Notes under the pieces: generated by a model
The model's input: only the letters and a program-made list of their open reading frames with translations
Databases searched by the model: none
Told to the model about the DNA's origin: nothing
Made by a program: the position numbers and the translations under genes
Part shown: piece by piece, positions 8,817 to 9,713 of the stretch
Position numbering within the stretch: position 1 is the stretch's first letter
How the letters are laid out: each line of letters opens with the position of its first letter
Assembly (NCBI RefSeq): GCF_055900595.2
Contig: NZ_CM148325.1
Reading direction: 5' to 3' (one strand)
DNA: 64,000 nt

Positions 8817-9713
8817 ATGGCTGACTCAACGAGAAATCGCTCAGCGGAGCGTTTGATTGATATCCTTGTTGAATTACAGAATTATGGTGTGGTCAGTCGC
8901 CATAATTTGATGAAAAAATACAACATCACTGAGCGAACAGCATATCGTGATCTGAATATGCTTTCTCCCTTTATTGAAGCCTGTGGCGATGGAAAATACC
9001 GGCTTATTTCAGCAAGAGCAGGAAACCAGAGCAAAGAATCCCTGCACAAATCTCTGGCCAGGTTACTGGATACTGATGCGATTTTTCCTGAACGGGATGA
9101 AGGTTTCTGGCAGAAATTAGAAAACAGGGCAACCGAAAAGCATATTCGTGTTCAGTTTCATAACCCTGAGCACACTATCAGGGATGATTTAAGAAAATAT
9201 CTTGATGTTCTTGAAAAAGCGATCTGCAACAGTAATGTTTGTCAGATTGCATATGCCGGTAAGATCAGAATCGTTCATCCCTATAAATTAACTAATCAGA
9301 GAAGTATATGGTATTTGCTGGCTACTGAAGAGAACAAGTTAAAGTCGTTTTCATTAGCTAAAATAAAATGGCTGGATATAAAAAAAGAAAAGTTTGCAAA
9401 GAGTGATGAAATACAGTCACTAGTAAGTGAGTCATGTGACCCGTGGGTGAGCGACAAAACATTTGATGTTGTGTTGTTCATTCACAGTAATATCGCCCAT
9501 TATTTTTTGCGACGGGACTTACTTCCTTACCAGCAATTGCTACACAAACATGACAATGGCATTACGCTGTCATGCAAGGCTTCACATAAAAATCAAATTA
9601 TCCCGTTGATTTTATACTGGCTACCGAATGTTGAAATTATTGAACCAGTATGGCTGAAAGAAGTTATGTTAACAATGTTAGGAAAATACCTCACCGCTGA
9701 GAATGTTTCCTGA
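8817..9713 (+). CDS. WYL-domain transcriptional regulator (wHTH - WYL - C-terminal extension; BrxR/CapW-like architecture)
   Basis: N-terminal HTH (RLIDILVELQNYGVVSRHNLMKKYNITERTAYRDLNML) and a literal W-Y-L signature (QRSIWYLLATEENKLKSFSLAKIKWLDI) at about nt 9300-9380; ends 48 bp before the next gene. Confidence 0.75.
   Translation: MADSTRNRSAERLIDILVELQNYGVVSRHNLMKKYNITERTAYRDLNMLSPFIEACGDGKYRLISARAGNQSKESLHKSLARLLDTDAIFPERDEGFWQKLENRATEKHIRVQFHNPEHTIRDDLRKYLDVLEKAICNSNVCQIAYAGKIRIVHPYKLTNQRSIWYLLATEENKLKSFSLAKIKWLDIKKEKFAKSDEIQSLVSESCDPWVSDKTFDVVLFIHSNIAHYFLRRDLLPYQQLLHKHDNGITLSCKASHKNQIIPLILYWLPNVEIIEPVWLKEVMLTMLGKYLTAENVS

Follow-up and report, generated by a model that had tools for sequence, protein, structure and literature searches.

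Does the WYL-domain transcription factor encoded on a genomic island of Escherichia coli hold its operon silent until a cue is sensed, or does it switch the operon on? The gene lies at 8817–9713 (+) of a 64,000-nucleotide stretch of contig NZ_CM148325.1 (RefSeq assembly GCF_055900595.2), the whole of which is referred to here as the window. A picture is forming in which WYL regulators serve as the common sensors through which damage to DNA or attack by phages reaches the expression of bacterial immune and repair genes. Those linked to defence to date (BrxR and CapW) are repressors, whereas the activators (DriD, DdaA, and PafBC) are global chromosomal regulators. The initial annotation of the window placed the regulator with BrxR and CapW, as a switch that represses until a cue is sensed. 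We find that the regulator resembles the DNA-damage-sensing activators DriD and DdaA more than the defence repressors BrxR and CapW, and that repression may be the wrong sign. The reading we prefer, although we hold it somewhat short of evenly probable, is a DriD-type activator that, loaded with single-stranded DNA (ssDNA), would drive a four-gene operon (WYL-A-B-C) from a promoter bearing a dyad-symmetric site.

The open reading frame (ORF) occupies exactly 8817–9713 (+), starts with ATG, and encodes 298 residues; a Shine-Dalgarno sequence, AGGTG, can be read at 8803–8807 (+), 9 nt 5' of the ATG. Profile searches identify a WYL domain, the Sm-like beta-barrel that characterises class-A WYL factors, at residues 128–184 (9198–9368, +; Pfam PF13280, independent E-value (i-E) 1.6e-7) and a WCX domain, their C-terminal dimerisation/extension domain, at residues 216–291 (9462–9689, +; PF25583, i-E 1.3e-6), and the PADLOC WYL models match the protein at E 9e-21 and 1e-19. 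These domain matches are far above chance expectation. At the N-terminus, the Pfam matches are weak (residues 12–50; HTH_11, 1.9e-3; HTH_DeoR, 1.3e-2). In the AlphaFold2 (AF2) model, whose mean predicted local distance difference test (pLDDT) score is 77.5, residues 2–63 fold into a canonical winged helix-turn-helix (wHTH) with the topology H-E-H-H-E-E and pLDDT of 81–89. The wHTH (residues 1–65, about 8817–9011, +) is followed by a helical linker (9012–9197, +) that leads to the WYL domain. The two Pfam families and the model thus bear out the wHTH, WYL signature, and C-terminal extension that had been read from the letters, and the string quoted for the signature, SIWYLLATEENKLKSFSLAKIKWLDI, corresponds to residues 163–189 of the translation. 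With its order of wHTH, helical linker, WYL, and WCX, the regulator is a class-A WYL transcription factor and presumably forms homodimers; its homologues keep the N-terminus MADS(T/A)RSRSAERL. The kind of protein is well known, and the subfamily that the regulator represents is new and uncharacterised. The regulator is not categorically new and holds nothing astonishing to a specialist; the predicted operator and promoter geometry described below is the new information.

The nearest relative of solved structure is the Caulobacter activator DriD. A profile search against the PDB sequences returns DriD at 5e-8, PafBC at 2e-6, and BrxR at 3e-3, and does not return CapW. Full-length Foldseek alignments were obtained to DriD, BrxR, and CapW, and the structural E-values are 2.4e-14 for DriD, 5e-11 for PafBC, about 3.6e-9 for BrxR, and about 2e-9 for CapW.

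The ssDNA contacts of DriD (PMC10853764) were mapped onto the regulator by HMMER alignments, the profile alignment running through the WCX domain. Seven of the ten contacts are kept or conservatively replaced (Y168 by Y146, R178 by R151, R189 by R/K162, Y192 by Y166, R204 by K176, W206 by F178, and Y240 by W210), and these positions are invariant or nearly so in the regulator family. The other three are lost: the loop with S172 is missing, R207 corresponds to S179, and R288 corresponds to N259. The losses count against an ssDNA-loaded activator and, together with the absence of the CapW-type flanking arginines (PMC11662680), they favour a genuine switch with another cue, such as a cyclic or linear nucleotide or RNA bound in the WYL pocket. 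A WYL factor that senses cyclic di-GMP has been described (PMC11880434). However, the seven contacts kept include the aromatics and arginines that DriD needs for activity, which are invariant in the family, and the class-A WYL factors with solved ligand complexes that were considered here (DriD, CapW, and PafBC) all bind ssDNA (PMC10853764, PMC11662680, PMC11804915). We regard a cue other than ssDNA as improbable.

The predicted recognition helix (residues 39–48) contains two invariant arginines, R40 and R44, four residues apart. In DriD and DdaA, two arginines of helix alpha-3 (R37 and R41 in DriD) contact bases (PMC10853764, PMC12392091, PMC13010146). When the wHTH alone (residues 1–70) is searched against the PDB sequences, no WYL regulator is found, which is a further point against a DriD-type activator. 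Because of this result, the wHTH is not alignable to DriD by sequence, and R40 and R44 cannot be matched directly to R37 and R41.

Upstream of the regulator, a palindrome at 8746–8763, ACTGACA-aatga-TGTCAG with a TGAC-N7-GTCA core, is the predicted operator; CTGACA-N5-TGTCAG has a single exact match in the 64-kb window. A TATAAT hexamer at 8773–8778 (+), 9 nt after the palindrome, is the predicted -10 box, and transcription would start near 8785. There is no TTGACA-like hexamer at a spacing of 16–18 nt from this hexamer. The upstream region had been adduced as long and AT-rich, in keeping with a regulated promoter. It is indeed 420 nt long, but its GC content (37.9%) is like that of the WYL gene (38.9%) and typical of the island, so its composition has little evidential weight. 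In the intergenic alignment of E. coli, Citrobacter, and Serratia, almost only the palindrome, the -10 box, and the ribosome-binding site are conserved, and conservation between genera is limited to the last ~75 nt.

The palindrome lies upstream of a homologous regulator in 36 distinct promoters, down to a protein identity of 29%; the distant carriers include homologues of 29–32% identity in Kosakonia, Cedecea, Silvania, and Aeromonas, and the Moellerella locus. It occurs once per fetched locus, always upstream of the WYL gene. Counting only positions outside the search selection, the palindrome columns are conserved at A -2 (34/36), C -1 (34/36), A +4 (33/36), T +10 (35/36), and G +15 (34/36), and the sequence changes freely in the 5-nt spacer and in the outer flanks. 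A regulatory switch, as claimed by the initial annotation, is very likely, since this conserved palindrome sits in the regulator's own promoter.

The palindrome could also be read at the RNA level, as the terminator of the upstream gene or as a leader attenuator, and the scan does list 8747–8763 as terminator-like, with a 6-bp stem, a 5-nt loop, and a T-rich tail. However, only three of the six pairs are G-C, the arms are invariant without compensatory changes in the 36 promoters while the loop varies, the distance is fixed to the -10-like hexamer and not to the upstream gene, and the upstream genes differ in identity and orientation among genera. A search of 8300–9900 finds no Rfam family. 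The retention of sequence in both arms without compensatory changes argues for a site for a symmetric protein dimer rather than an RNA hairpin, which we consider very improbable. Around the operator and promoter, two inverted-repeat pairs (8476–8491/8716–8731, 16 nt, 88%; 8527–8538/8787–8798, 12 nt, 100%) stand in the crossed order A B ... A' B', and chance would seldom produce the 12-mer in 434 nt. The pairs might be what is left of an inversion, a looping site, or a small mobile element; as extra operators or an invertible element they were set aside, being absent from Citrobacter and Serratia.

With the predicted -10 box set at -12 to -7, the operator is predicted to be centred at about -30 and to span about -38 to -21, so that its left half-site would lie over the -35 position. 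The arrangement recurs across the family: a -10-like hexamer starts 9–11 nt past the GTCA core in 34/36 promoters, and in 34/36 the best match to TTGACA at 16–18 nt has only 1–3 of 6 bases. In DriD-controlled promoters, which lack a -35 box, the DriD site extends over the -35 position, and its spacing from the -10 box is described qualitatively as fixed (PMC13004042). The regulator's promoter matches this geometry, with the position resting on the predicted -10 box. The sequence of the site points in the same direction. The motif of DriD is CGAC-N7-GTCG and that of DdaA is CGWCA-N5-TGWCG, for example CGACAATATGTGTCG (PMC10853764, PMC12392091, PMC13010146); the regulator's half-sites, defined by comparative genomics as TGACA-N5-TGTCA (TGAC-N7-GTCA), fit the shared form xGAC-N7-GTCx. 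We lean to activation because of the clade affinity, the type of recognition helix, the type of motif, and the promoter without a -35 box.

What of the BrxR/CapW-type repressor, in which an apo dimer on the palindrome would block sigma-4 or RNA polymerase at -35, and so hold its own level and those of A, B, and C low, until ssDNA or a phage cue bound by the WYL domain releases it? The regulator has the same wHTH-WYL-WCX architecture as BrxR and CapW, and this part of the BrxR/CapW-like assignment stands; however, the domain order is common to all class-A WYL factors, and the markers peculiar to the repressors are lacking. An RWHVR motif, whose flanking arginines contact ssDNA, marks the CapW/BrxR clade (PMC11662680); BrxR_Efer has LRWHVRA, and the regulator has SIWYLL (family consensus NIWYLQ) with no flanking arginine. 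The recognition helix of CapW and BrxR contacts DNA through S-x-x-Q-x-S (PMC9122588); hhalign places R40 and R44 at the S and Q positions of BrxR, within the local sequence ERTAYRD. Membership of the BrxR family is defined by a BLASTP E below 1e-5 (PMC9122601); the pairwise comparison with BrxR_Efer yields E 0.047 (20.4 bits) and an hhalign probability of 32%, and a phmmer search of the PDB with the regulator finds neither BrxR nor CapW. The position of the site differs as well. CapW binds across the -10 box (PMC9122588) and BrxR has its R-BOX directly downstream of it (PMC9122601), whereas the palindrome ends 9–10 nt upstream of the predicted -10 hexamer in 34/36 promoters.

Two further observations favour a repressor: like BrxR (PMC9122601), the regulator leads, in the same direction, an operon of PADLOC defence candidates on a mobile island, and the operator overlaps core promoter space. 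Nevertheless, the predicted -10 box follows the site, and the promoter has no -35 box, which a repressible promoter would normally need. Because the nearest solved relative is the activator DriD and the markers of BrxR and CapW are lacking, repression until a cue is sensed is not established. We give the repressor a lower, though still appreciable, probability than a DriD-type activator.

For a DriD-type activator, we propose the following sequence of events. The two wHTH domains of the dimer would bind the palindrome 8746–8763, which would cover the -35 position in the one promoter detectable for the operon. The WYL/WCX pocket would sense a nucleic-acid cue, most likely ssDNA arising from DNA damage or phage replication. 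The ligand-bound dimer would then aid RNA polymerase at a promoter with a good -10 box but no -35 box, as DriD and DdaA do, and activation would turn on the regulator itself, the membrane proteins A and B, and the Cys-cluster protein C.

Several points weigh against this proposal, besides the three lost contacts and the wHTH search. The -10 box, and hence the position of the operator, is a prediction. A site overlapping -35 is also a classic location for a repressor, and a perfect TATAAT preceded by A/T-rich DNA might be active enough on its own to require a repressor. The repressor BrxR has the same gene order, in which the regulator is first and shares a transcript with genes that may be toxic. 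Furthermore, DriD does not autoregulate (PMC13004042).

The regulator heads a co-directional operon: it is gene 1 of the four-gene cassette WYL-A-B-C, and the two large products match phage-defence candidate families of PADLOC. Gene A (9762–10841, +, 359 aa; PDC-M09A, E 5.4e-22) follows the WYL gene wherever the cassette is found. In its product, a transmembrane helix at the N-terminus is accompanied by a coiled coil and a hydrophobic core rich in Gly and Ala; residues 1–19 and 179–204 are hydrophobic segments. Gene B (10888–12459, +, 523 aa; PDC-M40B, E 4.6e-42) encodes a well-folded N-terminal domain (AF2 pLDDT >90) and C-terminal membrane helices. Gene C (12456–12722, +, 88 aa) encodes a YkgJ/CxxCxxCC cysteine-cluster protein according to the RefSeq annotation and PF03692 on orthologues; the start codon of gene C and the stop codon of gene B share the sequence ATGA, an overlap that points to translational coupling of the two genes. 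The 48-nt gap between the regulator and gene A (9714–9761, +) had been put forward as a promoter region. It instead contains a ribosome-binding site, AGGAGG, and the scan detects nothing there that resembles a promoter or a terminator. The Citrobacter gap is 38 nt long and the Aeromonas gap 4 nt. With no promoter or terminator detected in this gap, we read WYL, A, B, and C as one operon.

The window is an E. coli genomic island with a P4-type integrase gene (16447–17667, -) beside tRNA-Phe (17814–17889), and strain FEX669 has an identical segment at the other tRNA-Phe locus. The segment 8400–12800 is found in 446 of 5,426 complete E. coli genomes and is complete in 373 of them; at a coverage of at least 80%, the promoter and WYL gene are present in 372 genomes, and A and B in 373. 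The cassette is carried by about 7–8% of complete E. coli genomes; strain APEC O2-211 is a natural carrier, and strain K-12 lacks it. Beyond E. coli, the order WYL-A-B-C recurs in Citrobacter, Serratia, Pectobacterium, Aeromonas, Moellerella, and Pseudomonas, at differing chromosomal sites, and the cassette moves between Gammaproteobacteria as one unit. The regulators of the Citrobacter and Serratia cassettes, which adjoin ychF/pth, are 60–62% identical to that of E. coli; those of Moellerella and Aeromonas are 38% and 31% identical, respectively, and that of Pseudomonas belongs to a different WYL subfamily, with 27% identity over WYL-WCX only. The Moellerella cassette adjoins a type I restriction system. 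In addition, the accessory genes listed as peculiar to an emerging invasive clone of non-typeable Haemophilus influenzae (PMC11932112, Table 1) include a cluster of a WYL gene, two hypothetical genes, and a YkgJ protein gene of 813, 1185, 1494, and 270 nt, close to the gene lengths of the E. coli cassette.

Linkage was surveyed in 80 metagenomic loci found via gene B, 61 of which have enough upstream DNA to be judged. An adjacent WYL gene is present in 57 of the 61, divergent in two and truncated in two. The divergent genes, in distant A-B-C loci, lie at 2050–3186 (-) of L120 and 2578–3696 (-) of L152. In two Citrobacter-like contigs (L096, 3382–3735; L107, 3381–3821), the regulator is cut to its C-terminal 118–147 aa before A-B. 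No WYL gene is detected upstream in the other four of the 61 loci (L110, L118, L121, and L129).

About 59 E. coli genomes hold only a remnant of the WYL gene, and intact effectors without a regulator are almost never seen. Several E. coli genomes keep just the promoter and the first ~360 nt of the regulator; in one genome, IS903B is inserted in gene B. Regulator orthologues of 49–55% identity stand upstream of cstA/btsT without A, B, and C in Enterobacter, Leclercia, Lelliottia, and Huaxiibacter (L007, L008, L011, L023–L036, and L051–L053). At these loci, the palindrome is kept and the -10 box is weakened (CATAAT, CATCAT). Some of the orphan regulators have decayed to 65–165 residues, and one Leclercia contig (L028) with an orphan regulator still has gene A. 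The orphans have the look of remnants left after the cassette was lost, or of regulators that serve another target. The asymmetry, orphan regulators being common and effectors without a regulator almost never seen, is expected of a repressor whose prior loss is toxic, and so speaks for repression. However, it is confounded by polarity, as indels in the first gene cut the effectors off from the promoter, and by a search that was seeded with the regulator.

WYL paralogues with 29–32% identity and the same CTGACA-N5-TGTCAG site are found in Kosakonia, Silvania, Cedecea, and others (L037–L049, L054, and L056). There the site lies 200–250 nt upstream of the start codon (e.g. L043: 5753–5767, 5962–6843, 7083–8839), and the WYL gene is followed by a different pair of membrane proteins of about 290 aa. 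Because WYL paralogues with the same site precede a different membrane-protein pair, the regulator and its operator appear to form a portable module. We tentatively extend this to a broader scenario, to which we assign well below an even chance: an ssDNA-activated activator of the DriD/DdaA type may have been captured as the first gene of a mobile cassette, where it would act as a positive-feedback trigger, and the same module may be reused in Kosakonia, Cedecea, and Silvania. Such a trigger would differ from the de-repression paradigm of BrxR and CapW. The operon would be kept silent by its promoter without a -35 box and would fire only once the regulator is loaded with ssDNA that stems from phage replication or DNA damage; A, the HNH-like-headed B, and their Cys-cluster partner would then kill or arrest the cell.

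Genes A and B match no informative family in Pfam, NCBIfam, or PHROGs. Gene B has more than 968 homologues, without a Pfam domain, and its family is widely labelled 'cobalamin adenosyltransferase' or 'chemotaxis protein' in public records without a supporting domain; the locus offers a route to the function of this misannotated family. The invariant columns of its N-terminal domain (D110-H111, H119-D121, N136, N140, N149, and K152) form a D-H, H-D, N, N, N-K pattern that hints, weakly, at an HNH/His-Me nuclease fused to membrane helices. The AF2 model of gene B has no significant fold match in the PDB, the best being the HNH domain of Cas9 (E 0.57); alpha-pore-forming toxins match it at E >3 only. 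In Pfam, GmrSD_C matches gene B at no better than i-E 0.18. Since the PDB fold matches are not significant, the HNH-like and pore-forming ideas stay hints.

A defence or abortive-infection module is plausible, because the cassette is island-borne and patchy, has a restriction system as neighbour in Moellerella, and matches PADLOC candidate families. Among validated defence systems, the cassette belongs to none; it matches only the candidate families PDC-M09A and PDC-M40B. By analogy with the DNA-damage activators, a module that responds to DNA damage or stress by halting division or altering the envelope is an equally serious reading. DriD drives DidA and DdaA drives AciT, both small membrane-associated division inhibitors, upon DNA damage (PMC10853764, PMC13010146). 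A and B are membrane proteins without a known defence domain, and the Kosakonia WYL genes with the same operator also head pairs of small membrane proteins. The PADLOC families are candidates only: literature searches on PDC-M09/PDC-M40 and on YkgJ with WYL found no functional study, only the listing of the H. influenzae cluster. On the other side stand the patchy, island-borne, and mobile distribution of the cassette, the restriction system next to the Moellerella copy, and the match of the products to families collected from defence islands. We hold a stress module with no part in anti-phage defence to be less than evenly probable.

The neighbourhood of the cassette contains other genes. Upstream of the regulator, 7593–8396 (+) encodes an OmpW/Adr-like outer-membrane beta-barrel protein, and 6966–7340 (-) encodes a 124-aa paralogue of H-NS/StpA that scores E 3e-21 against the NCBIfam H-NS model, short of the cut-off. 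From its place upstream of the WYL region, which is low in GC, this paralogue could act in silencing or counter-silencing the island. Directly after gene C, 12775–13059 (+) is an ORF for a 94-aa protein with two transmembrane segments, shorter in RefSeq (65 aa). Farther along the island are an EptA/CptA-like phosphoethanolamine transferase gene (13125–14798, +, 557 aa), whose product matches the lipid A transferase domain model at E 1e-47 and falls far below every curated cut-off, including those of the MCR families, and, as island cargo, a gene for a tetratricopeptide repeat protein (14942–15985, -, 347 aa).

How, then, does the regulator compare with the known systems? DriD of Caulobacter crescentus has the same order of wHTH, helical linker, WYL, and WCX, and its 4-bp half-sites are likewise 7 bp apart (CGAC-N7-GTCG versus TGAC-N7-GTCA in the regulator's site). 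The outer half-site base is, however, C/G in DriD and T/A here, the two proteins are only 20–24% identical and differ in length (327 versus 298 aa), and DriD has NYL where the regulator has a true WYL tripeptide. DriD is an ssDNA-activated activator of a chromosomal DNA-damage regulon that excludes its own gene, whereas the regulator is a putative activator and lies inside the single mobile operon that it presumably controls.

DdaA (UniProt A0A7U9PMQ2), a WYL activator of the DNA-damage response and of restriction-modification and CRISPR genes in Acinetobacter/Moraxellaceae (PMC12392091, PMC13010146), links DNA damage to the expression of defence genes. Compared by its published description only, it has nearly the same motif shape (CGWCA-N5-TGWCG versus CTGACA-N5-TGTCAG) and also two recognition-helix arginines. 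Unlike the regulator, it is a global regulator of about 335 aa, with its motif about 50 bp upstream of transcription starts. PafBC of Actinobacteria, a WYL activator that acts by sigma adaptation, is the second-best structural and profile match, and its motif lies directly upstream of the -10 box, in place of the -35 box. In contrast to the regulator, PafBC consists of two WYL proteins, either paired as a heterodimer or fused, and serves a global actinobacterial regulon through a non-palindromic -26 element.

Among the repressors, BrxR (E. fergusonii pEFER; Acinetobacter) shares the domain order and the tie to mobile defence loci; its gene, too, comes first and points the same way as the genes under its control, and its promoter also has an inverted repeat whose spacer is 5 bp long. 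BrxR differs in the arms of its R-BOX (11 bp, downstream of the -10 box, versus 6–7 bp, upstream of the predicted -10 box), in RWHVR versus SIWYLL, and in a recognition helix of the S..Q versus the R..R type. CapW, the CBASS-associated WYL repressor that ssDNA releases from DNA (PMC9122588, PMC11662680), has no sequence-level match to the regulator, which lacks the ssDNA-contacting RWHVR arginines; capW stands upstream of, or is integrated in, the CBASS operon, and its sites overlap the -10 box (PMC9122588, PMC11662680). The E. coli locus is a compact, self-contained case of one promoter, one 18-bp site, and four genes, suited to testing what sets the sign of WYL regulation: its regulator has activator-type hallmarks, yet holds a BrxR-like position before a widespread cassette of uncharacterised membrane effectors.

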